Source: Deltaproteobacteria bacterium (GTDB lineage Bacteria > Desulfobacterota > GWC2-55-46 > DRME01). Taken from it: 59,378 nt of DNA. Under the pieces are notes generated by a model, which was given only the letters and a program-made list of their open reading frames with translations, did not search any database and was not told the DNA's origin. The first letter of the stretch is position 1. Each line of letters opens with the position of its first letter. The stretch covers positions 1-59,378 of the forward strand of contig DRME01000074.1 of assembly GCA_011375175.1 (NCBI GenBank). Direction: 5' to 3'. Positions 48,822 to 57,513 of the stretch are shown one piece after another. The position numbers and the translations under genes were made by a program.

Positions 48822-50048
48822 TCAATCCTTCTCCGTCGCGGCGCCGCCCGCCTCCTCGCCCGCCTCGTCCCTCACACGAAGTTTTCTTCGCAGCGTGGAG
48901 AGCCCCCATGCGGCCTTCATGCCGAGCCGCGTCTTGTAGAAGCCGCCGAATATGTCCTTGAAGCCGCTCTTCTCTCCGGCGAGCAGGGCCCCCTCCATGG
49001 GGGTGGTGACGACGCTGATGTCGCGCACCCAGTTCATGCTTATGTTGTTGCGCTTGACGGCCTCGTAGAGGTGTCTGTAAATGGGCACGATTATCTCGGC
49101 CGTAAGCGGCTCTATCCTCAGCGCCCTCTCGGGCGACGGCCTGTAGATCGGCAGGATTGGGACGACCCCCATGCCGGTCAGGAAGTCTATGCCCTGACAG
49201 GTGGAGCCCGGCATCTCAAGGCCCACGATGAGGTGCGAGGCCACGGTGCCGCTGGGGAAGATGCCGGCGGCGTAGCGCAGGGCCTCGATGTAGCGCTCGC
49301 GCCCTATGAGCTGCGCCCTCCCGGGGCATATCATCTCGAAGAGCTCCTTGTCGAAGATCTCGAGATTGTAGAGCACCGAGTCGGCTCCGGCCGCGTAGGT
49401 CTCGTCTATCCAGCGGTTGTCCCTGGGCGGCAGAGCCTCCACGGCGACGAGGCAGTGGAAGTGCTTCTTCACCGCCGTGATGTAAGGCCTCAGGAACTCA
49501 ATGCCCCCGTCGTCGCCGGAGCTGAAGCCGATGGAGAGGTAGATTATCTCCGATGCCCTCTCCTTGAGTATGGCCTCCACGGTCTCGACGACCTCGTCGA
49601 CTGTGTATACCCGGTCATCTCCGCCGTCTATATCGAAGTTGCCGGCGCAGTAGCGGCACTCGACGCTGCGGTTGAAGAACTCGCACCTCGGCGACGGCGT
49701 TATGACGGCGTAACGGCCGTGAGCCGTCGCTATCCTGGAGAAGGGCACGCCCGTTGAGGTGGAGCGCCCGTAGAACTCCGGCGGCCTGACCACCTCCACG
49801 TCGACCTCGCCGCTGTGGTCGACGATCCTGAACCCCCGGCCCCCGCTCGTGAGCAGGTAGGGCGACGCCCCGGTGAACTCCTCCCTGAAGGGGACGTTGA
49901 CGAGCGTTCCCCTGGGGAGCAAGAGGTCCAGACCGAGACTGTTGGCCGCCGCCTCTATCTCGGCGGCTATGGAGGGGTCGATCCTGATGCCGCGGAGCAT
50001 CAGGTCGATCTTCAGCGCGCCGGGATTATGGAGGTAACTCTTCTCCAT
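48822..50048 (-). CDS. Radical SAM protein with Cx8Cx2C motif (MSMEG_0568-like)
   Basis: CEFFNRSVECRYC; NLEIFD...F..ICPG, SHLIVGLE TIM-barrel motifs. Confidence 0.8.
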   Translation of the reverse strand: MEKSYLHNPGALKIDLMLRGIRIDPSIAAEIEAAANSLGLDLLLPRGTLVNVPFREEFTGASPYLLTSGGRGFRIVDHSGEVDVEVVRPPEFYGRSTSTGVPFSRIATAHGRYAVITPSPRCEFFNRSVECRYCAGNFDIDGGDDRVYTVDEVVETVEAILKERASEIIYLSIGFSSGDDGGIEFLRPYITAVKKHFHCLVAVEALPPRDNRWIDETYAAGADSVLYNLEIFDKELFEMICPGRAQLIGRERYIEALRYAAGIFPSGTVASHLIVGLEMPGSTCQGIDFLTGMGVVPILPIYRPSPERALRIEPLTAEIIVPIYRHLYEAVKRNNISMNWVRDISVVTTPMEGALLAGEKSGFKDIFGGFYKTRLGMKAAWGLSTLRRKLRVRDEAGEEAGGAATEKD

Positions 50049-50107: not shown

Positions 50108-50929
50108 TCACGTCTCGCAGCGGGCCGCCTGGAGCTCGCAGCTCTGCTCGTATGTAACGAGCTCCTTTATGACGGCGTTCTCGCCGCAGAGGGCGCAGTT
50201 CGGGTCCTTCCCCACCCGCACCTTCCTGAAGCTCATCTTGAGGGCGTCGAATATCATGAGGTGACCGGCCAGGCTCTCGCCTATGCCGAGGACCTCCTTT
50301 ATGGCCTCCACGGCCTGGAGCACGCCTATGACACCGGCCAGCGCTCCGAGCACTCCGGCCTCCTGGCAGCTCGGCACGAGCCCCGGCGGCGGCGGCTCTG
50401 GGTAGAGGCACCGGTAACAGGGCCGGCCTTCATGGGGCTTGAATACCGTCACCTGCCCGTCGAAGCGGAACATGGAGCCCGACACCAGGGTCTTCTTCTC
50501 GAAGAAGGCGGCGTCGTTCATGAGGAAGCGGGTGGGGAAGTTGTCGCTTCCGTCGAGCACCACGTCGTAGTCGCGTATGACGGAGCGGATGTTGTCGGCC
50601 GTGAGGCGCTCGTTGTAGGCCACGACCTTGCAGTCCGGGTTTAGCCTCTCGATGGACTCCCTGGCCGAGAGGGCCTTGGGCCTGCCTATGTCCGAGGTGT
50701 CGTGGATTATCTGGCGCTGGAGGTTGCTCAGGTCCACGGCGTCGCCGTCGGCTATGCCGATGGTGCCCACGCCGGCGGCGGCCAGGTAGTAGAGGGCCGG
50801 CGAGCCGAGCCCTCCGGCGCCGAGCACGAAGACCTTGCTCTCCAGGAGCCTGGCCTGGCCCGTTCCGCCCACCTCGGGCAGGATTATGTGACGCGAATAA
50901 CGCTCTATCTGCTCTTCTGTGAAGTCCAT
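50108..50929 (-). CDS. moeB: MoeB/ThiF family sulfur-carrier adenylyltransferase (E1-like)
   Basis: RYSRHIILPEVG, GAGGLGS, SNLQRQ, DGSDNF.TR, CYRCLYP, SCQEAGVLG, CALCG. Confidence 0.92.
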   Translation of the reverse strand: MDFTEEQIERYSRHIILPEVGGTGQARLLESKVFVLGAGGLGSPALYYLAAAGVGTIGIADGDAVDLSNLQRQIIHDTSDIGRPKALSARESIERLNPDCKVVAYNERLTADNIRSVIRDYDVVLDGSDNFPTRFLMNDAAFFEKKTLVSGSMFRFDGQVTVFKPHEGRPCYRCLYPEPPPPGLVPSCQEAGVLGALAGVIGVLQAVEAIKEVLGIGESLAGHLMIFDALKMSFRKVRVGKDPNCALCGENAVIKELVTYEQSCELQAARCET

Positions 50930-51006: not shown

Positions 51007-51423
51007 TCATGCAATCTCCAGCGCCTCTTCGGCGAAGGGCTCGTCGGGCTCCTCGAAGCACCAGCTTCGCGCGCTCTCGACCCTGCCCCCGCGCACCGAG
51101 ACGATGAGGTACGAATACCAGGGCTGCCCCCTCTCCCTGTCGAAGCGCGAGGGCCTGTCGGCGTGGTCGGGATGGGAGTGGTAGAAGCCGAGCACGTCGA
51201 GACCTTCGGCCCTCGCCTCCTTGTCTATCCTGTTGAGGTCGGCCGGCGATATCTCGTAGCGGTCCCCGGCGCGCTCGGTGTTCCTGTTCTCCGTCCTCAC
51301 CACCCTCTCCACGACCTTGACCTCCGACGCCGTGCCCACGAGCACCCCGCAGCACTCGCGCGGATAGGCCGTGCGCGCGTGCGCCGTGAGCTCGTCGTAG
51401 AGCTCCCTCGTCATGCGGAGCAC
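51007..51423 (-). CDS. M67/JAMM metallopeptidase (Mec/HcyD-like)
   Basis: YPRECCG.L.G; GFYHSHPDH...PS.FD JAMM motif. Confidence 0.9.
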   Translation of the reverse strand: MLRMTRELYDELTAHARTAYPRECCGVLVGTASEVKVVERVVRTENRNTERAGDRYEISPADLNRIDKEARAEGLDVLGFYHSHPDHADRPSRFDRERGQPWYSYLIVSVRGGRVESARSWCFEEPDEPFAEEALEIA

Positions 51424-51424
51424 C

Positions 51425-52384
51425 TCAGGCGCCCTCCCAGAGCCTGGTGCTCAGGTACTTGTCGCCGCCGTCGGGAAAGATGACGACGATGAGCCCCTTC
51501 TCGATCCTCGAGGCGAGCCGCATCGCAGCCCACATGGCGGCGCCCGAGGACTGGCCGACGAGAAGGCCCTCTTCGCGGGCAAGGCGCTTGGCCATGTCGT
51601 AGGACTCCTCGGTCGGGGCCGCTATCTTGTCGTCGTGCTCCTCGGCGTGGTATATGCCGGGCACGATGGAAGAGGCCATGTGCTTGAGGCCCTCGAGCCC
51701 GTGGAGCGGGCTGTCGGGCTCTACGGCCACGACCTGGATATGGGGATTGTACTCCTTGAGCCTCCTGCCCGTGCCCATTATGGTGCCGCCCGTGCCTATG
51801 GAGGCGACCAGGTGGGTTATGCGCCCCTCGGTCTGCTCGAATATCTCCACGCCTGTGGTGTCGTAATGGGCCCTCGGGTTGGAGGGGTTGTTGTACTGGT
51901 CGAGCTTGCAGTACTTCTCCGGGTTGTCGACGTAGAGCTTCCAGGCGAGCCTTATGGCCCCGTCCGACCCCTCGAGCGGGCTCGAAAATACGACGTTGGC
52001 GCCGAAGGCGTGGAGTATCTTCTTGCGCTCCTCGCTCACGTTGGCCGGCACGACGAGCTCCACCCTGTAGCCCTTCACGGCCCCTATCCAGGCGTAGGCT
52101 ATGCCCGTGTTGCCCGAGGTGGAGTCGAGTATGACCTTATCCTTCGTCAGTATGCCGGCGGCCTCGGCGTCCTCTATCATGCGAAGCGCCGGCCGGTCCT
52201 TGACCGAGCCGCCGGGGTTGCAGCCCTCGAGCTTGGCGTATATCTCCACCTCGGCCGGAAGCTCGCGGGTAATACGGTTGATACGCACAAGCGGCGTATT
52301 ACCGACGAGCTCAACGGCCGATGACTTGACGCCGAGTCCCTGGGCCCTGAACGCGTGCATCCGCACCGCCTTCTCTCCACTCAT
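51425..52384 (-). CDS. cysM: PLP-dependent cysteine synthase (CysM-like)
   Basis: VGNTPLV, KLEGCNPGGSVKDR, STSGNTG, QYNNPSN, GTGGT, GQSSGAA; GGAGG before ATG 52384. Confidence 0.9.
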   Translation of the reverse strand: MSGEKAVRMHAFRAQGLGVKSSAVELVGNTPLVRINRITRELPAEVEIYAKLEGCNPGGSVKDRPALRMIEDAEAAGILTKDKVILDSTSGNTGIAYAWIGAVKGYRVELVVPANVSEERKKILHAFGANVVFSSPLEGSDGAIRLAWKLYVDNPEKYCKLDQYNNPSNPRAHYDTTGVEIFEQTEGRITHLVASIGTGGTIMGTGRRLKEYNPHIQVVAVEPDSPLHGLEGLKHMASSIVPGIYHAEEHDDKIAAPTEESYDMAKRLAREEGLLVGQSSGAAMWAAMRLASRIEKGLIVVIFPDGGDKYLSTRLWEGA

Positions 52385-52406
52385 TGTGCAAAACCTCCGT
52401 CGAGGG

Positions 52407-52517
52407 GGCTCATCCGTCGCTGAAAAAGACCCCCTAATGGAACTCAGGACCATCGAGCAGGTTGCATATCGCGTTGACGCGGCTCATCCGTCGCTGAAAA
52501 AGACCCCGTAATGGAAC
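52407..52517 (-). promoter_or_regulatory. Duplicated 37-nt leader motif with two short uORFs
   Basis: 52407-52443 and 52481-52517 differ at one base; uORFs 52434-52487 (MSRVNAICNLLDGPEFH) and 52381-52413 (MSPLDGGFAQ). Confidence 0.6.
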
Positions 52518-52713: not shown

Positions 52714-52950
52714 TCACTCGATGACGTCGAGCTCTATGGGTTCGACCTTGACGCCCTTGTCGATGAAGAAATCGATGGCCTTGTCTATCTCTTCGGGCTC
52801 GCCGTCGAACTCGAGGGCCACGAGTCCGAGGCTCGGAGAGACCGAGGCCTGGCGTATGTTGGTGACGACCCTGAAGCGACGTCCCACCTCGTAGATGAGG
52901 GGCTCCCGGATGCGCTCCTTGGGATATGTAAGGTAGACCCTCTTCTTCAA
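52714..52950 (-). CDS. Stand-alone NIL-domain protein
   Basis: RVYLTYP...IREPLIY...F.VV.NIRQASV...G.V.LE..G; TTG start overlaps the carrier stop codon. Confidence 0.8.
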   Translation of the reverse strand: MKKRVYLTYPKERIREPLIYEVGRRFRVVTNIRQASVSPSLGLVALEFDGEPEEIDKAIDFFIDKGVKVEPIELDVIE

Positions 52951-53228
52951 CGCACGCCTCCCGCTATGGCGGGGATGATGGAGAGTTCGTCGCCGTCGCT
53001 TGTCGGCGTGGAGAGGTTGTCCCTGAAGCGTATGTCCTCGTCGTTGATATATATGTTTATGAAGCGACGGAGGTTGCCGTCTTCGTCGCAGATGCGCTCC
53101 TTGAGACCGGGATGCCTCTTTTCGAGGTCCTCGATGACCTCCGAGACCGTGGCCCCCTCGGCCGTCACCTCGTCCTGGCCGCCCGTTATCTTCCTCAGGG
53201 GAGTCGGTATCCTCACCTTTACCGCCAT
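52947..53228 (-). CDS. MoaD/ThiS family sulfur carrier (CysO/HcyS-like)
   Basis: VRIPTPLR, RFINIYINDEDIR, IIPAIAGG-VR C-terminus. Confidence 0.92.
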   Translation of the reverse strand: MAVKVRIPTPLRKITGGQDEVTAEGATVSEVIEDLEKRHPGLKERICDEDGNLRRFINIYINDEDIRFRDNLSTPTSDGDELSIIPAIAGGVR

Positions 53229-53316: not shown

Positions 53317-55770
53317 TCATACCGCCTTCTTGACGAGAAGCTCGTAATGGTCGCCGGTCTTCTCCATGCGCAGGATCTCCTGGCCGTCGTTTCTCAGGCT
53401 CGAGGGGACGTTCCTTATGGGCTCGCCCTCGTCGAGGTAGAGCAGGAGTTCCTCGCCCTTTTTCATGGTCTCGAGCTTGATCTTGGCCTTCACGTAGTTT
53501 ATGGGGCACTTCACGCCGCGAAGGTCCATAAGCACGGGCCCGGCGCCCCCTTCGTCCTCCGCGCCGCCGGGGGCCTGCCGGCTCTCCGGGGCCGGGGCTT
53601 CGCCCTCCCCGCCCTTCTCCCCCTCTATCCTCTCGAGCCTGAAGTGGAAGAAGTCGTCCATCGACGAGTAGAGGGCCTTGACGCGGTCCAGCATGGCCTC
53701 GATGCGGCCCAGGTACTCATCGAGCCCCCGCTCGTTGAGCAAGCGCGACGAGAGGAGTTCGGCCGTCCTGTCAAGCCCCGCGAAGCGCTCCGGGACGAGC
53801 CCCCGGCCTATGAACTTGGACTCGAAGTGGTCTACGGCCTCCTCGTCCGAGGCGGTCTCTATGCCCTGTGTTATGAGCAGCGCCTTGCACGTGGCCACAA
53901 GGCCCCTGTAGGCGGCCTCCGACGCCTCTTCGAGACGGCCCTGCGCGAGCGCCCGCCGCGCCCCGGCCAGCGAGCCTTCGGCCTCCTCTATGTCCACGTC
54001 TATTATGTCGAAGACACCGGCGCCGCACTCGCCGGGACCGAGACCGGCCAGCGAGAACTCCTCGTCCACGCCCCAGTCCGTGTACATCTGCGGGGCCTCG
54101 TCATGGGGCGGCATGGTCGAGTACCGCTCGACGAGCTCCCTCACAACGGCCCTGCCGCCGCCGTCGAGGTAGTCGTGGAAGCCGCCCTCCCCCCTCTCGG
54201 CGGCGTAGCGGCCGAGCAGCTCGGTGACGAAGGCCGGTATCCTCTTCGCCGGCACGAAGCCGTAGGTCTCGGCAAGCCTCGTCTTGCCGGCCTCGACCCT
54301 GCCTCCGGCAAGCACCTCGTAGTGGGGGGCGAGCCGCCCGTCGCCTCTCTTGGCCGCGCCGTAGAGGCCTATCGCCCCTACGGGGTGCTGGCCGCAGGCG
54401 TTGGGGCAGCCGCTTATCTTTATGTCCACGTCGAGGGAGCCGAGATCGAGTCCGCCGCCGCAAAGCTCCCTGGTGAGCTCGGCCGCCATGTTCCTTGAGA
54501 GGCATATGCCCAGGTTGCACGTCGACGCGCCGGGACAGCAGAGTACGTCGTCGATGCGGCCGGCGCCCGCGCGGCCGAGGCCGAGTTCGGCGAGCGCGGC
54601 GAAGAGGGGCCTGAGCTCCTCCTCGCGCAGCCAGCGGATCATGAGGTTCTGGTCGTGGCCGGTGCGGAGCGTGCCCTCGCCGAAGCGCTCGACCACGTCG
54701 GCAAGACGCCTGAGGACGGGGGCCTCGATGTCGCCGAGTTCGAGCCTTATGCGGGCGTAGTGGAAGCCGGGCTGCTTCTGCTCCCTCACGTTGGAGGCGC
54801 GCCAGAGCTCAAAGCCCCGCTCGTCGAAACCGGCCGGCGGCTCGCCGGCCTCGACCGCGCCAACGTCACGAAGCCGCGGGACGGGCCGCAGCGCCATGGG
54901 CCTGGGGCCGCTGCTTCGCACCGCATCGAGCTCCCGGCGGTAGAGGTCGAGGAACTTCCGCTCGCCGTACTTCTCGATTACGAAGCGAAGGCGCGCCTTG
55001 TGCTTGTTGCGCCTGTTGCCGTGCTTGTCGAAGAGGTTCATGACCGCCTCGGCCACGGCGAGGGCCTGGTCGGCCGGTATGAACTCCTCGATGAGTGTTG
55101 CCGGACGCGACCACGCGCCCATCCCGCCGGCGGCCCACACCTGGAAGCCCTCTTCGGCGGCACCGCCGCGCCCGCGCCTCACGGCCACGAAGCCCACGTC
55201 GTTTATGGTCGCCAGGGCGCAGTCCTCGGCGCAGCCGGAAAAGGCTATCTTGTACTTCCTGGGCAGGCTGTAGGCGCTGGGGTGCGTCAGCAGCGCCTCG
55301 GTGACGGCCACGGCGTAGGGGGCCACGTCGAAAGACTCGCGGGGACAGACGCCCGACTCTGGACAGGCCGTCACGTTTCTGAGGGTGTTGCCCCCGCCGC
55401 CGCGTGTGGATAGACCCACCTCGGCAAGCGACCTCATGGCCTTGACCGTGTCCTCGAGCACCACGCGGTGGAGCTGCACGTCCTGGCGGGTCGTCACATG
55501 GGGTATGCCGTTGCCGTACCGCTCCGAGAGGTCGGCTATGCGGCGCATCTGTTCGGGAAGCAGTCCGCCCGCCGGGACCCTGATCCTCATCATGTGGGTC
55601 GTCTGGCCCCGCTGGGCGTATACGCCCCTCGTGACGCGGAAAGGCTTGAAGCGCTCGCGCGATATCTCGCCGCGCAGGACCTTCTCCACCTCGGCGGCGT
55701 AGACGTCGATGTCGTCGATGATCTCCTGCGGTATCTCGTAGAAACTCTTCGCCTGCTTTACATCACTCAT
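53317..55770 (-). CDS. sir: Siroheme sulfite/nitrite reductase fused to HEPN-like and TusA/SirA domains
   Basis: GVYAQR, HVTTRQDVQLH, LPRKYKIAFSGC, ISGCPNACGQH; C-terminal MDLRGVKCPINYVKAKIKLE. Confidence 0.88.
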   Translation of the reverse strand: MSDVKQAKSFYEIPQEIIDDIDVYAAEVEKVLRGEISRERFKPFRVTRGVYAQRGQTTHMMRIRVPAGGLLPEQMRRIADLSERYGNGIPHVTTRQDVQLHRVVLEDTVKAMRSLAEVGLSTRGGGGNTLRNVTACPESGVCPRESFDVAPYAVAVTEALLTHPSAYSLPRKYKIAFSGCAEDCALATINDVGFVAVRRGRGGAAEEGFQVWAAGGMGAWSRPATLIEEFIPADQALAVAEAVMNLFDKHGNRRNKHKARLRFVIEKYGERKFLDLYRRELDAVRSSGPRPMALRPVPRLRDVGAVEAGEPPAGFDERGFELWRASNVREQKQPGFHYARIRLELGDIEAPVLRRLADVVERFGEGTLRTGHDQNLMIRWLREEELRPLFAALAELGLGRAGAGRIDDVLCCPGASTCNLGICLSRNMAAELTRELCGGGLDLGSLDVDIKISGCPNACGQHPVGAIGLYGAAKRGDGRLAPHYEVLAGGRVEAGKTRLAETYGFVPAKRIPAFVTELLGRYAAERGEGGFHDYLDGGGRAVVRELVERYSTMPPHDEAPQMYTDWGVDEEFSLAGLGPGECGAGVFDIIDVDIEEAEGSLAGARRALAQGRLEEASEAAYRGLVATCKALLITQGIETASDEEAVDHFESKFIGRGLVPERFAGLDRTAELLSSRLLNERGLDEYLGRIEAMLDRVKALYSSMDDFFHFRLERIEGEKGGEGEAPAPESRQAPGGAEDEGGAGPVLMDLRGVKCPINYVKAKIKLETMKKGEELLLYLDEGEPIRNVPSSLRNDGQEILRMEKTGDHYELLVKKAV

Positions 55771-56004
55771 TATCTCTTCAACTCCCGATAGGAGAACTGC
55801 CCAGCCGGTGCCTCTCTATCAAGGGACCGTCCGGGCGCGGACGCCCCTGCTGGCGGAAAACAAGCCGTGAGGCATCCTCCTGCCCCACCTGCCCCTCTGT
55901 CCCCCTGTCTCCCTGTCCGCTCCAGCGGCGAAGGTGCGGGCCGTGGCCGCCACTGCGGAGGTCCCCCGCAACAAACCTCTCCGCGCGGGCGGCGGCCCGG
56001 CGCC

Positions 56005-57258
56005 TCAGAGGGCGCAGCTCTTCCGGCCCTTGACGAGGGCGTCGAACTCCTTGAGGCTTGCGTTTATGACCGGTGTCTCGCCGAGCTTGCCGTAGAGGGC
56101 CTCCTGTGTCTTGAGGCCGTTGCCCGTTATGGAGACGACGATGGACTCGTTTCGCGGGATACGGCCCTGTTCGAGGAGCTTTTTCGTAACGCCCAGCGTT
56201 ACGCCTCCGGCCGTCTCGGCGAAGATGCCCTCGGTCTCGGCCAGCAGTCTTATGGCGTCTATTATCTCTTCGTCGCTCACGTCCTCGCCCCAGCCGCCGC
56301 TCTCGCGCATGGTCCTGGCCGAGTAGTAACCGTCGGCCGGGTTGCCTATGGCGAGGCTCTTGGCTATGGTGTCGGGCCGCACCGGCCTTATGAGCTCCGA
56401 GCCTTCCTTCACGGCCGTCACTATGGGGGCGCACCCGGTGGCCTGGGCGCCGTAGATCTTCGAGTCCAGCGGCCCATCGACGAGCCCCAGCCTGTGGAAC
56501 TCCTTGAAGGACTTCCATACCTTGGTTATGAGCGAGCCTCCGGCCATGGGCACGACCACGTGCTTCGGCAGCCTCCAGCCGAGCTGCTCGACGATCTCGT
56601 AGCCGAAGGCCTTGGAGCCCTCGGCGTAGTAGGGCCTTATGTTTATGTTGACGAAGGCCCAGCCGTACTTGCCCGCTATCTCGCTGCACAGACGGTTGAC
56701 CTCGTCGTAGGTGCCCCTGATGCGCACCATGTTGCAGCCGTAGACGAGGGTGCCGAGTATCTTGGTGGGCTCCAGGTCGTGGGGGATGAAGACGTAGTTC
56801 TCGAGGCCCGCCGCCGAGGCGTTGGCGGCCACCGAGTTTGCGAGGTTGCCGGTGGAGGCGCAGCTCACCACGTCGAAGCCCAGCTCCACAGCCTTCGATA
56901 TGGCCACCGAGACGACCCGGTCCTTGAAGGAGAGGGTCGGGTAGTTGACGGCGTCGTTCTTTATGTAGAGCTCGTCAACGCCGAGGGCCTCTTCGAGGTT
57001 GCGGGCCCTCACAAGGGGGGTGAAGCCCACCTGTGCGCCCACGGTTGGCTCTCCGTCAAGGGGCAGGAGCTCACGGTAGCGCCACATGTTCGCCGGCCTC
57101 GACTCTATGACCCGGCGGCTCAGCGCCTTCGCTATCTCTTCGTATTCGTAGACGACCTCGAGCGGGCCGAAGCAGAACTCGCAGACATGGAGCGCCTCTT
57201 TGGGGTACTCCTTGCCGCACTCCCTGCACTTTAGCGCCTTCACGTAACTCATCTCCAT
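56005..57258 (-). CDS. Threonine synthase-like PLP enzyme with N-terminal zinc ribbon
   Basis: CRECG...CEFC, SFKDR, CASTGNLA, PMAGGSL, AIGNPADG, ITGNGLK. Function may not be threonine synthesis (see findings). Confidence 0.85.
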   Translation of the reverse strand: MEMSYVKALKCRECGKEYPKEALHVCEFCFGPLEVVYEYEEIAKALSRRVIESRPANMWRYRELLPLDGEPTVGAQVGFTPLVRARNLEEALGVDELYIKNDAVNYPTLSFKDRVVSVAISKAVELGFDVVSCASTGNLANSVAANASAAGLENYVFIPHDLEPTKILGTLVYGCNMVRIRGTYDEVNRLCSEIAGKYGWAFVNINIRPYYAEGSKAFGYEIVEQLGWRLPKHVVVPMAGGSLITKVWKSFKEFHRLGLVDGPLDSKIYGAQATGCAPIVTAVKEGSELIRPVRPDTIAKSLAIGNPADGYYSARTMRESGGWGEDVSDEEIIDAIRLLAETEGIFAETAGGVTLGVTKKLLEQGRIPRNESIVVSITGNGLKTQEALYGKLGETPVINASLKEFDALVKGRKSCAL

Positions 57259-57294: not shown

Positions 57295-57330
57295 AAAAAA
57301 AAACCTCTTCTTTTGAAGCTAAGAAGAGGT
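57295..57330 (-). terminator. Intrinsic terminator of the SAM-I expression platform
   Basis: ACCTCTTCTT-loop-AAGAAGAGGT followed by a long U tract on the minus strand. Confidence 0.85.
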
Positions 57331-57340
57331 ACGAGACCTT

Positions 57341-57513
57341 TTCTTATCTTCCAAGGTCCTCCTCGGCCTGCCGGGGCCCGAGGCGCCATTCGCCCCCCGG
57401 CAGACCCCGGCCGGGACGTGGCGGACCTTGCTGGAATTAGCACCTGTCACCCCCGAAGAGGCCGGTTGCTGTGGCTTCACAGGGCCAGTTCCCTCTGCCA
57501 CTCTTGATAAGAA
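57341..57513 (-). ncRNA. SAM-I (S-box) riboswitch
   Basis: TTCTTATCAAGAGTGGCAGAGGGAACTGGCCCTGTGAAGCCACAGCAACC...GGTGCTAATTCC...GGAAGATAAGAA; the 3' strand of P1 can pair with the terminator 5' arm as an antiterminator. Confidence 0.95.

Follow-up and report, generated by a model that had tools for sequence, protein, structure and literature searches.

Here we describe P0001, a gene on the minus strand of a 59,378-nucleotide stretch of DNA from a Deltaproteobacteria bacterium (assembly GCA_011375175.1, contig DRME01000074.1; hereafter the window), which encodes a sulfite reductase extended by a HEPN-fold domain and a TusA domain. The explanation that we favour, with a confidence only a little above even, is a joint one: P0001 would be the sole assimilatory NirA/Sir-type reductase of its genome, would bind an accessory cluster in its N-terminal half (N-half), and would hand sulfur through C755 and C582 to a ubiquitin-like carrier encoded beside it. 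The architecture, conservation, fold and synteny of the protein were observed directly, with conservation assessed in 200 close relatives, of which 120 were database proteins and 80 came from genome loci. The gene and its parts are as follows.

53317..55770, minus strand: P0001, the whole sulfite reductase-HEPN-TusA fusion gene (open reading frame, translation, Pfam, NCBIfam, AlphaFold2)
54871..55623, minus strand: N-terminal sulfite reductase half, residues ~50-300, which supplies the anion- and siroheme-binding residues
55345..55365, minus strand: N-half CX5C motif (CPESGVC, residues 136-142), with C136 and C142 as probable accessory [4Fe-4S] ligands, kept in 185/200 relatives
55219..55233, minus strand: N-half CX3C motif (CAEDC, residues 180-184), with C180 and C184, in register with the C-terminal half (C-half)
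54091..54813, minus strand: C-terminal sulfite reductase half, residues ~320-560 (second Pfam NIR_SIR_ferr/NIR_SIR pair; alignment with nitrite reductase and SiRHP)
54517..54537, minus strand: C-half CX5C motif (CPGASTC), with C412 and C418 as predicted catalytic [4Fe-4S] ligands, invariant in 200/200 relatives
54394..54408, minus strand: C-half CX3C motif (CPNAC), with C455 and C459 as predicted catalytic [4Fe-4S] ligands, including the siroheme-bridging Cys, invariant in 200/200 relatives
53992..54084, minus strand: conserved extension with C582, residues 563-593 (C582 at 54025-54027; E581 and C582 invariant in 200/200 relatives)
53641..54015, minus strand: HEPN-fold four-helix domain, residues 586-710 (Foldseek match 2hsb; Pfam HEPN in relatives; ESM Atlas)
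53536..53640, minus strand: disordered tether rich in Gly/Glu/Ala/Pro, residues 711-745 (model confidence at 714-742; sequence)
53320..53535, minus strand: TusA domain, residues 746-817, with the motif C755-P-x-N (CPIN; C755 at 53506-53508) (Pfam, Foldseek, alignment)

A sulfite reductase with two C-terminal modules

The ORF listing and the translation give P0001 as one open reading frame (ORF) of 817 amino acids (aa), in which Pfam matched the tandem NIR_SIR_ferr and NIR_SIR repeats in two stretches each (6.5e-48 and 1.4e-37). The core is nearest to the NirA family in NCBIfam, yet it falls under every equivalog cut-off. An AlphaFold2 model, which an initial annotation made from the sequence alone had suggested building, was constructed on 39 relatives and resolved the core, the HEPN-fold domain and the TusA domain. 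Its mean predicted local distance difference test score (pLDDT) is 86, with a confident core at residues 1-560, a loop at 575-580 (pLDDT <50), a helical domain at 586-703, a disordered tether at 714-742 (pLDDT <50) and an alpha/beta domain at 746-815. Foldseek gave NirA of Mycobacterium tuberculosis (1zj8) as the best match of the core (E 1.5e-31), and the core also matches the plant nitrite and sulfite reductases (NiR and SiR; 3b0g) and E. coli SiRHP (1aop). Three architectures occur among the relatives, namely the core only (~575-610 aa), the core with HEPN (~695-780 aa) and the core with HEPN and TusA (~765-830 aa).

The initial annotation had described cluster-type Cys motifs in both halves and a fusion to HEPN-like and TusA domains. 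The CX5C...CX3C pattern was indeed found in both halves, with CPESGVC, CAEDC, CPGASTC and CPNAC all at the places given and their coordinates verified, and the fusion was confirmed by the Pfam TusA match, by Foldseek, by Pfam HEPN matches in relatives and by the ESM Atlas.

An N-half Cys set that probably holds an accessory cluster

The two halves of the core align with each other (E 1e-12), which places C136 and C142 opposite C412 and C418, and C180 and C184 opposite C455 and C459; following the textbook SiRHP, we take C184 to be the pseudo-symmetric counterpart of the siroheme-bridging Cys. The N-half positions are occupied by residues other than Cys in plant NiR and M. tuberculosis NirA (G/E and L/V in NirA), and alignment with these two proteins thus bore out the proposal of the initial annotation that cluster ligands are present in both halves, unlike in the solved NirA, NiR and CysI.

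Among the 200 close relatives, all four N-half Cys are present in 180 and none in 14, while C184 alone is missing in 5. Given this near all-or-none pattern, the N-half Cys appear to act as one selected unit. A looser sample, comprising 141 representatives of 50%-identity clusters (some of whose apparent core-only or HEPN-only members are probably gene fragments), has the full set in 69, none in 47 and a partial set in 25, with states such as CSCH, CACH and CLCC among the partial ones. On a FastTree tree of these representatives, which is unrooted and weakly resolved (58 of 138 forks open), the N-half Cys states need at least ~25 changes, a rough count in which gain and loss are indistinguishable. 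One well-supported clade of 35 representatives has zero N-half Cys; HEPN is present in all of its members and TusA in 23 of the 35.

From this pattern, the N-half motif is most likely a self-contained ligand set that would hold a second, siroheme-free [4Fe-4S] cluster. Such a cluster would most likely be accessory and dispensable, a relic of a duplicated, DsrA-like ancestor that has been kept as a unit in many lineages. It could serve in structure, in redox chemistry or as an entry point for electrons. Because about half of the 50%-identity clusters are without the N-half Cys, any cluster bound there would be non-essential. The extra cluster that the initial annotation had put forward is therefore plausible, as the Cys are in register and mostly kept in close relatives, but it would be a dispensable one, the Cys having been repeatedly lost.

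It is doubtful, though the idea keeps a real share of the probability, that the N-half Cys are free of any Fe-S cluster in vivo and are instead a decaying relic, a Zn site or structural disulfides. The frequent changes on the tree, the absent or partial sets in 72 of the 141 representatives, and the clade of 35 that functions entirely without these Cys would all suit such a view, which is harder to reconcile with the near all-or-none state of close relatives, with a geometry inherited from a genuine cubane site and with the confident modelling of the N-half Cys loops (pLDDT 93-96).

A TusA domain tied to carrier-activating genes

The C-terminal domain scores 58.4 bits against Pfam TusA (PF01206; cut-off 28.6, E 6.4e-16), and Foldseek superposes it on 3lvj_C and 1dcj with template modelling (TM) scores of 0.85 and 0.83 (on the target). 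C755 aligns with C19 of E. coli TusA and with the Cys of TsuB/YeeD. It is kept in 193/193 sequences covering the position, and the fourth residue of the motif is Asn, not Pro, in 192 of the 193. The strict invariance of C755-P-x-N argues for chemistry at C755. Two Cys, C755 and C582, are effectively invariant.

The fused family was found in at least 507 species genomes, almost all of them metagenome-assembled genomes (MAGs), in more than a dozen phyla: Thermodesulfobacteriota, Nitrospirota, Nitrospinota, Planctomycetota, Verrucomicrobiota, Omnitrophota, Armatimonadota, Chloroflexota, Actinomycetota, Spirochaetota, Acidobacteriota and Bacillota, among others. The typical gene order in 80 fused loci is carrier - moeB - JAMM - reductase - cysM. 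The carrier typically has ~70 aa and ends in ...MGGG followed by 1-5 extra residues, and the MoeB beside the fused reductase is without a rhodanese-sized C-terminal extension in 48 of 49 cases.

To set these loci against relatives without TusA, the neighbourhoods of the latter were taken from a metagenome scan, and none of the 78 metagenome loci had MoeB, JAMM, a carrier or a separate TusA nearby. Since many of the contigs were short, the comparison was repeated with flank filters. With equal flanks, MoeB or JAMM was found near 36 of 53 TusA-fused loci and 0 of 37 non-TusA loci (Fisher p 2e-12, a value that ignores phylogeny and the differing sequence collections). This contrast ties the TusA fusion specifically to the carrier-activating genes. 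It does not extend to cysH, which adjoins both fused and unfused forms of the reductase. The initial annotation had suggested that the TusA domain captures product sulfur and passes it to an adjacent carrier; the synteny with rhodanese-less MoeB, JAMM, carrier and CysM is specific and supports the hand-off more strongly than any other evidence here, while the transfer itself stays a prediction, as gene order shows no chemistry.

We consider it unlikely that the TusA domain does not carry the product and serves instead as a docking or regulatory module, which would recruit the MoeB-carrier pair and let free sulfide be consumed on the spot, or acts on the substrate side, where thiosulfate or sulfite could be bound in the form of a Cys-thiosulfonate, as in TsuB/YeeD or the CysH tail. 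The nearest solved relatives of the domain include TsuB/YeeD, the C582 loop has an E-C-G reminiscent of the ECG(L/I)H with which the neighbouring CysH ends, and sulfide reportedly suffices for carrier thiocarboxylation in vitro, all of which would be in keeping with a role other than product transfer. Nevertheless, the fusion follows the carrier, its activating enzyme (E1) and JAMM, and not cysH or transporters (the same 36/53 vs 0/37), and the C755-P-x-N motif is strictly invariant.

An invariant Cys loop and a non-nuclease HEPN domain

The extension at residues 563-593 (Y-x-D-W-G...F-S-L-A-G-x-G-x-G-E-C-G-A-G) is the best-conserved block of the C-terminal third of the protein. Its invariant C582, in a GEC motif, had not been remarked in the initial annotation. 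The loop that contains it was modelled with low confidence (pLDDT <50 at residues 575-580) and is probably flexible. M. tuberculosis NirA and plant NiR align with the core and end ~40 residues earlier, without a GEC motif. In the core-only relatives the chain stops 2-3 residues after the GEC Cys (...G-x-G-E-C-A-A-stop), which suggests that this Cys at first belonged to a C-terminal arm and was turned into a hinge within the chain once HEPN and TusA had been added behind it.

Unfused relatives that end in G-x-G-E-C-[AS]-x-stop include the loci L084-L087, L099, L102-L104, L113, L118 and L128 and the proteins P0273, P0296 and P0330. Such a placement of the Cys is reminiscent of the DsrC arm, and also of CysH with its ECG(L/I)H tail.

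The following helical domain matches AF_0298 (2hsb) in Foldseek with a TM score of 0.77 on the target and a root mean square deviation of 2.1 over 118 columns. Pfam HEPN was matched in 5 of the 39 relatives (best E 1.8e-6), whereas P0001 itself has only a PaREP1 match (HEPN clan; residues 594-653) of 18.9 bits, below the cut-off of 24.4; the ESM Atlas puts residues of this region among HEPN clusters. The Rx4-6H RNase motif was not found, and no Arg or His is conserved in residues 586-710 across the 200 relatives, so a function of the HEPN domain as a nuclease was ruled out. The conserved positions are mostly hydrophobic, together with Gly, Ala and acidic residues (D588, D593, D705), and we read the domain as a putative spacer or dimerisation scaffold.

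A single predicted siroheme site

In the alignment, C412, C418, C455 and C459 fall on the Cys that ligate the cluster in plant NiR and in NirA of M. tuberculosis. The anion- and siroheme-binding residues lie all in the N-half: R62, R95, R131, K172 and K174 align with R108, R141, R177, K218 and K220 of chain 1zj8_A and are invariant in 199-200 of the 200 relatives. In contrast to the invariant R95, R131, K172 and K174, the pseudo-symmetric C-half positions 373, 407, 447 and 449 are unconserved and often acidic, and in P0001 they are D373, D407, D447 and D449. When members bearing the N-half Cys were compared with Cys-less members, the systematic difference was limited to the four Cys and G179, the residue before C180, and this co-variation gave no sign of a second tetrapyrrole pocket evolving together with the Cys. 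Because the Arg/Lys pocket occurs once and no residue beyond the Cys and G179 co-varies, P0001 is predicted to have one siroheme site, not two, built from the N-half anion pocket and the C-half cluster ligands.

The initial annotation had raised the possibility of two siroheme-[4Fe-4S] centres, and this was not supported; two catalytic centres were ruled out, as far as can be judged from sequence, by pocket conservation and co-variation. That each monomer holds two complete centres, the second being catalytic or structural as in DsrA, is very improbable: the N-half does have a full CX5C...CX3C set in register with the C-half, including C184 at the bridging-equivalent position, and the two-subunit relative DsrAB, whose DsrA and DsrB are remote Foldseek matches, binds two tetrapyrrole/cluster pairs, but the would-be second pocket is variable and often acidic, no residue of the C-half changes together with the N-half Cys, and C184 is the Cys most easily lost singly.

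The active-site Cys that forms the Tyr-Cys thioether in M. tuberculosis NirA has no equivalent in P0001, as the Cys of the 1zj8 E-A-C-G motif aligns with G126 (G-G-G-G-N). Many short-form relatives have E-A-C-G-N, with the cross-link Cys, where the TusA-fused family has G-G-G-G-N (G126, 55393-55395).

The locus and its genome

In the window, the reductase gene (sir) has only minus-strand neighbours, which together with it have the order ATP sulfurylase, Fe-S adenylylsulfate/phosphoadenylylsulfate (APS/PAPS) reductase, universal stress protein (USP), DASS transporter, variant radical S-adenosylmethionine (SAM) protein, MoeB/ThiF, JAMM protease, CysM, NIL protein, carrier, reductase, ThrC-like (MetM-type) enzyme and SAM-I riboswitch. 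The features closest to the reductase are listed below.

50108..50929, minus strand: MoeB/ThiF E1 without rhodanese, 273 aa, ThiF only (Pfam, NCBIfam)
51007..51423, minus strand: JAMM/Mec protease, Prok-JAB (Pfam, NCBIfam)
51425..52453, minus strand: CysM-type cysteine synthase (Pfam PALP; TIGR01138 cysM, 386 bits)
52714..52950, minus strand: stand-alone NIL-domain gene (Pfam NIL)
52947..53228, minus strand: ubiquitin-like sulfur carrier, 93 aa, ending AGG-VR, the presumed acceptor (NCBIfam SAMP1/MoaD; sequence)
56005..57258, minus strand: ThrC-like (MetM-type) pyridoxal phosphate (PLP) enzyme, upstream of sir and the first gene after the riboswitch (Pfam PALP; NCBIfam thrC-like)
57420..57513, minus strand: SAM-I riboswitch heading the metM-sir-carrier-NIL row (Rfam RF00162, 54 bits, E 1e-10)

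The adjacent carrier of the initial annotation is real, being a SAMP1/MoaD-family gene. The TTG start of the NIL gene overlaps the TGA stop of the carrier gene (TTGA, 52947-52950), which implies a probable translational coupling of the two. A terminator-like hairpin at 57303-57330 (minus strand) just after the SAM-I aptamer forms its expression platform. A weaker hairpin occurs at 55867-55888 (minus strand) in the 234-nucleotide gap between metM and sir, in a region where the number of such sites is no more than expected by chance; sir may be co-transcribed under the SAM riboswitch. The variant radical SAM gene (48822-50048, minus strand; NF045502, 176 bits), between moeB and the DASS transporter, adjoins the reductase in 1 of 80 related loci and lies outside the conserved module.

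P0001 is the only NIR_SIR gene of the genome, which has a size of 2.49 Mb and is 98.6% complete. This status and the gene context (sat, cysH, cysM) led us to rule out a nitrite reductase, and the predicted specificity of P0001 for sulfite rests on the same two points. From its gene content, we read the locus as encoding the synthesis of cysteine and homocysteine by way of a protein thiocarboxylate, as in the CysO/CysM/Mec and MetO/MetM pathways (PMC13759103).

Two further arrangements were seen in relatives. A short-form subgroup with the tail V-M-D-G-E-C-S-A (L089, L091, L092, L094, L139, L140, L156) directly adjoins a MetM-like ThrC homologue, and a carrier, E1 and JAMM were not detected within its flanks, which raises the question of the sulfur donor of MetM there. 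In Omnitrophota, CysM-like ORFs of ~376-379 aa (L009:8742-9872, L071:1204-2343) match the carrier hidden Markov model (E ~1e-37), which suggests a carrier-CysM fusion.

Proposed mechanism

In the mechanism that we propose, ferredoxin-type electrons would drive sulfite reduction at the single siroheme site, and C755, probably together with C582, would take up the newly reduced sulfur at the reductase. The tethered TusA domain would then swing to the carrier, adenylated by MoeB (carrier-AMP) and trimmed by JAMM, and deliver the sulfur, thereby filling the role that the rhodanese domain has in MoeZ. The carrier thiocarboxylate would feed CysM for cysteine and the MetM-like enzyme for homocysteine. 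The occupancy of the N-half cluster, every step of sulfur transfer and the oxidation state of the transferred sulfur are here predictions from the sequence.

Several points weigh against this proposal. All of the evidence is sequence-based. About half of the 50%-identity clusters (72/141) are without the full N-half Cys set, and 17 of the 53 fused loci with adequate flanks have no MoeB or JAMM nearby. The genome also has a stand-alone TusA (contig C127:13221-13427, minus strand, 86 bits) and, on contigs C7 and C113, three matches to the rhodanese domain, so that alternative sulfur donors for the carrier exist. In the work on CysO and HcyS, sulfide alone is said to convert the carrier acyl-adenylates in vitro, and the TusA domain may thus be chemically unneeded. 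Moreover, if the reductase releases sulfide (S2-), no Cys persulfide can form without an oxidant.

Two ways out of this redox difficulty can be envisaged. The Cys arm may capture an intermediate before its reduction is complete, in the manner of DsrC acting on DsrAB, or the assimilatory reductases may release S0, as has been claimed (PMC13188885). That 2026 claim, according to which assimilatory sulfite reductases release S0 rather than sulfide, is based on assays that were run aerobically with four other enzymes (PMC13188885); if it is true, persulfide capture would be chemically simple.

By analogy with DsrC, we also considered a version without free sulfide, which we regard as improbable. 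The C582 arm would reach the siroheme, S0 would be removed after four electrons, bound either in a persulfide or in a C582-S-C755 trisulfide, C755 would deliver it to the adenylated carrier, and the resulting disulfide would be re-reduced by the last two electrons, possibly via the otherwise unexplained N-half [4Fe-4S] cluster; these details share the low probability of the whole. If true, it would be an assimilatory counterpart of the DsrAB/DsrC mechanism and would offer a built-in test of the 2026 S0 claim (PMC13188885).

Relation to known systems

Returning to the favoured reading of P0001 as an assimilatory NirA/Sir-type reductase, its closest solved relative is M. tuberculosis NirA/SirA (1zj8; profile E 4e-89), a siroheme sulfite reductase that depends on ferredoxin and has in common with it the two-half fold, the Arg/Lys pocket and the C-half cluster Cys. 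NirA differs in having no N-half Cys, in ending ~40 residues earlier and in lacking the DWG...GEC extension, HEPN and TusA. The plant ferredoxin-dependent nitrite and sulfite reductases and E. coli CysI (3b0g, 2akj, 5h8v, 1aop) belong to the same superfamily and have the same cofactor-binding half, but possess only one Cys set and end without C-terminal modules. The context of P0001 is sulfate assimilation (sat, cysH, cysM) as opposed to nitrite assimilation.

In DsrAB, both DsrA and DsrB keep cluster ligands, and sulfur leaves the siroheme site on a Cys of the flexible C-terminal arm of DsrC. The ligands in both halves of P0001 are reminiscent of this arrangement, and the GEC Cys at the C-terminus of the short forms appears to be laid out like the DsrC arm. 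However, DsrAB has only remote similarity to P0001 (E 1e-7 to 1e-9), and the context of P0001 is assimilatory. Homology to DsrC/TusE was not detected in P0001, and no ferredoxin insert was seen in it.

The genes around P0001 encode the same kinds of carrier, E1, JAMM and PLP enzymes as CysO-CysM-Mec-MoeZ of M. tuberculosis, HcyS-HcyD-HcyF of Wolinella and MetO-MetM-Mec-MoeZ, but in the P0001 locus the E1 is without rhodanese and TusA is built into the reductase. The MetO-MetM-Mec-MoeZ route is listed for Streptomyces (PMC13759103). Iyer, Burroughs & Aravind (2006) reported Class 4e operons that combine ThiS/MoaD, JAB, a rhodanese-less E1, SirA (TusA), sulfite reductase, PAPS reductase and ATP sulfurylase, found the rhodanese-less E1 always accompanied by SirA/TusA and predicted that SirA replaces the rhodanese; in actinobacteria they also saw fusions of ThiS with sulfite reductase (PMC1779556). 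In the Class 4e operons SirA is a separate gene product, whereas in P0001 TusA is fused through HEPN.

The HEPN-T group (Cpin_6617), reported from Bacteroidetes and Nitrospirae by Anantharaman et al. (2013), has, like P0001, no Rx4-6H and is 'fused to a dyad of ferredoxin domains' (PMC3710099). Compared by description only, it very probably has the same architecture as P0001, although that paper names neither sulfite reductase nor TusA for it. The TusA domain itself has the fold of TusA, TsuB (YeeD) and YedF (3lvj, 1dcj, 8k1r, 1je3) with the catalytic Cys in register; these are free proteins with C-P-x-P, in contrast to the enzyme-tethered C-P-x-N of P0001. One database name in use for the family is 'Putative sulfite reductase, contains SirA-like domain (modular protein)', and no biochemical or structural study of a SiR-HEPN-TusA fusion was found in the literature searched. 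The SiR-HEPN-TusA protein is thus a catalogued, very widespread, uncharacterised variant of assimilatory sulfite reductase. What is new here are the tests of pocket conservation and co-variation, which speak against a second siroheme, the pattern of N-half loss, the origin of the GEC Cys as a C-terminal tail, and the synteny contrast between fused and unfused forms.

Implications for the family

The family is very common, including in Nitrospira, planctomycetes, Verrucomicrobiota and Omnitrophota, and NCBI often names its members 'sulfurtransferase TusA family protein' (e.g. the loci L004 and L008 and the proteins P0055 and P0071, from Nitrospinota MAGs). Owing to such mis-naming, sulfate assimilation may be under-called in MAG surveys. 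A 2024 survey reported Sir to be absent from most non-Nitrospinia Nitrospinota MAGs (PMC10839748), and mis-naming of the fusion might contribute to that absence.

The N-half ligand set and its natural losses form a series for asking how a two-centre ancestor became a one-centre enzyme. As to how reduced sulfur reaches ubiquitin-like carriers in the many bacteria with a rhodanese-less E1, the family suggests that a carrier domain on a tether of the reductase itself brings it there. Whether the product of assimilatory reductases is sulfide or sulfane sulfur is in dispute, a debate for which the invariant Cys arm is relevant, and the interest of the family would rise if a relay of Cys arm and TusA removes the sulfur before it is reduced to the level of sulfide.

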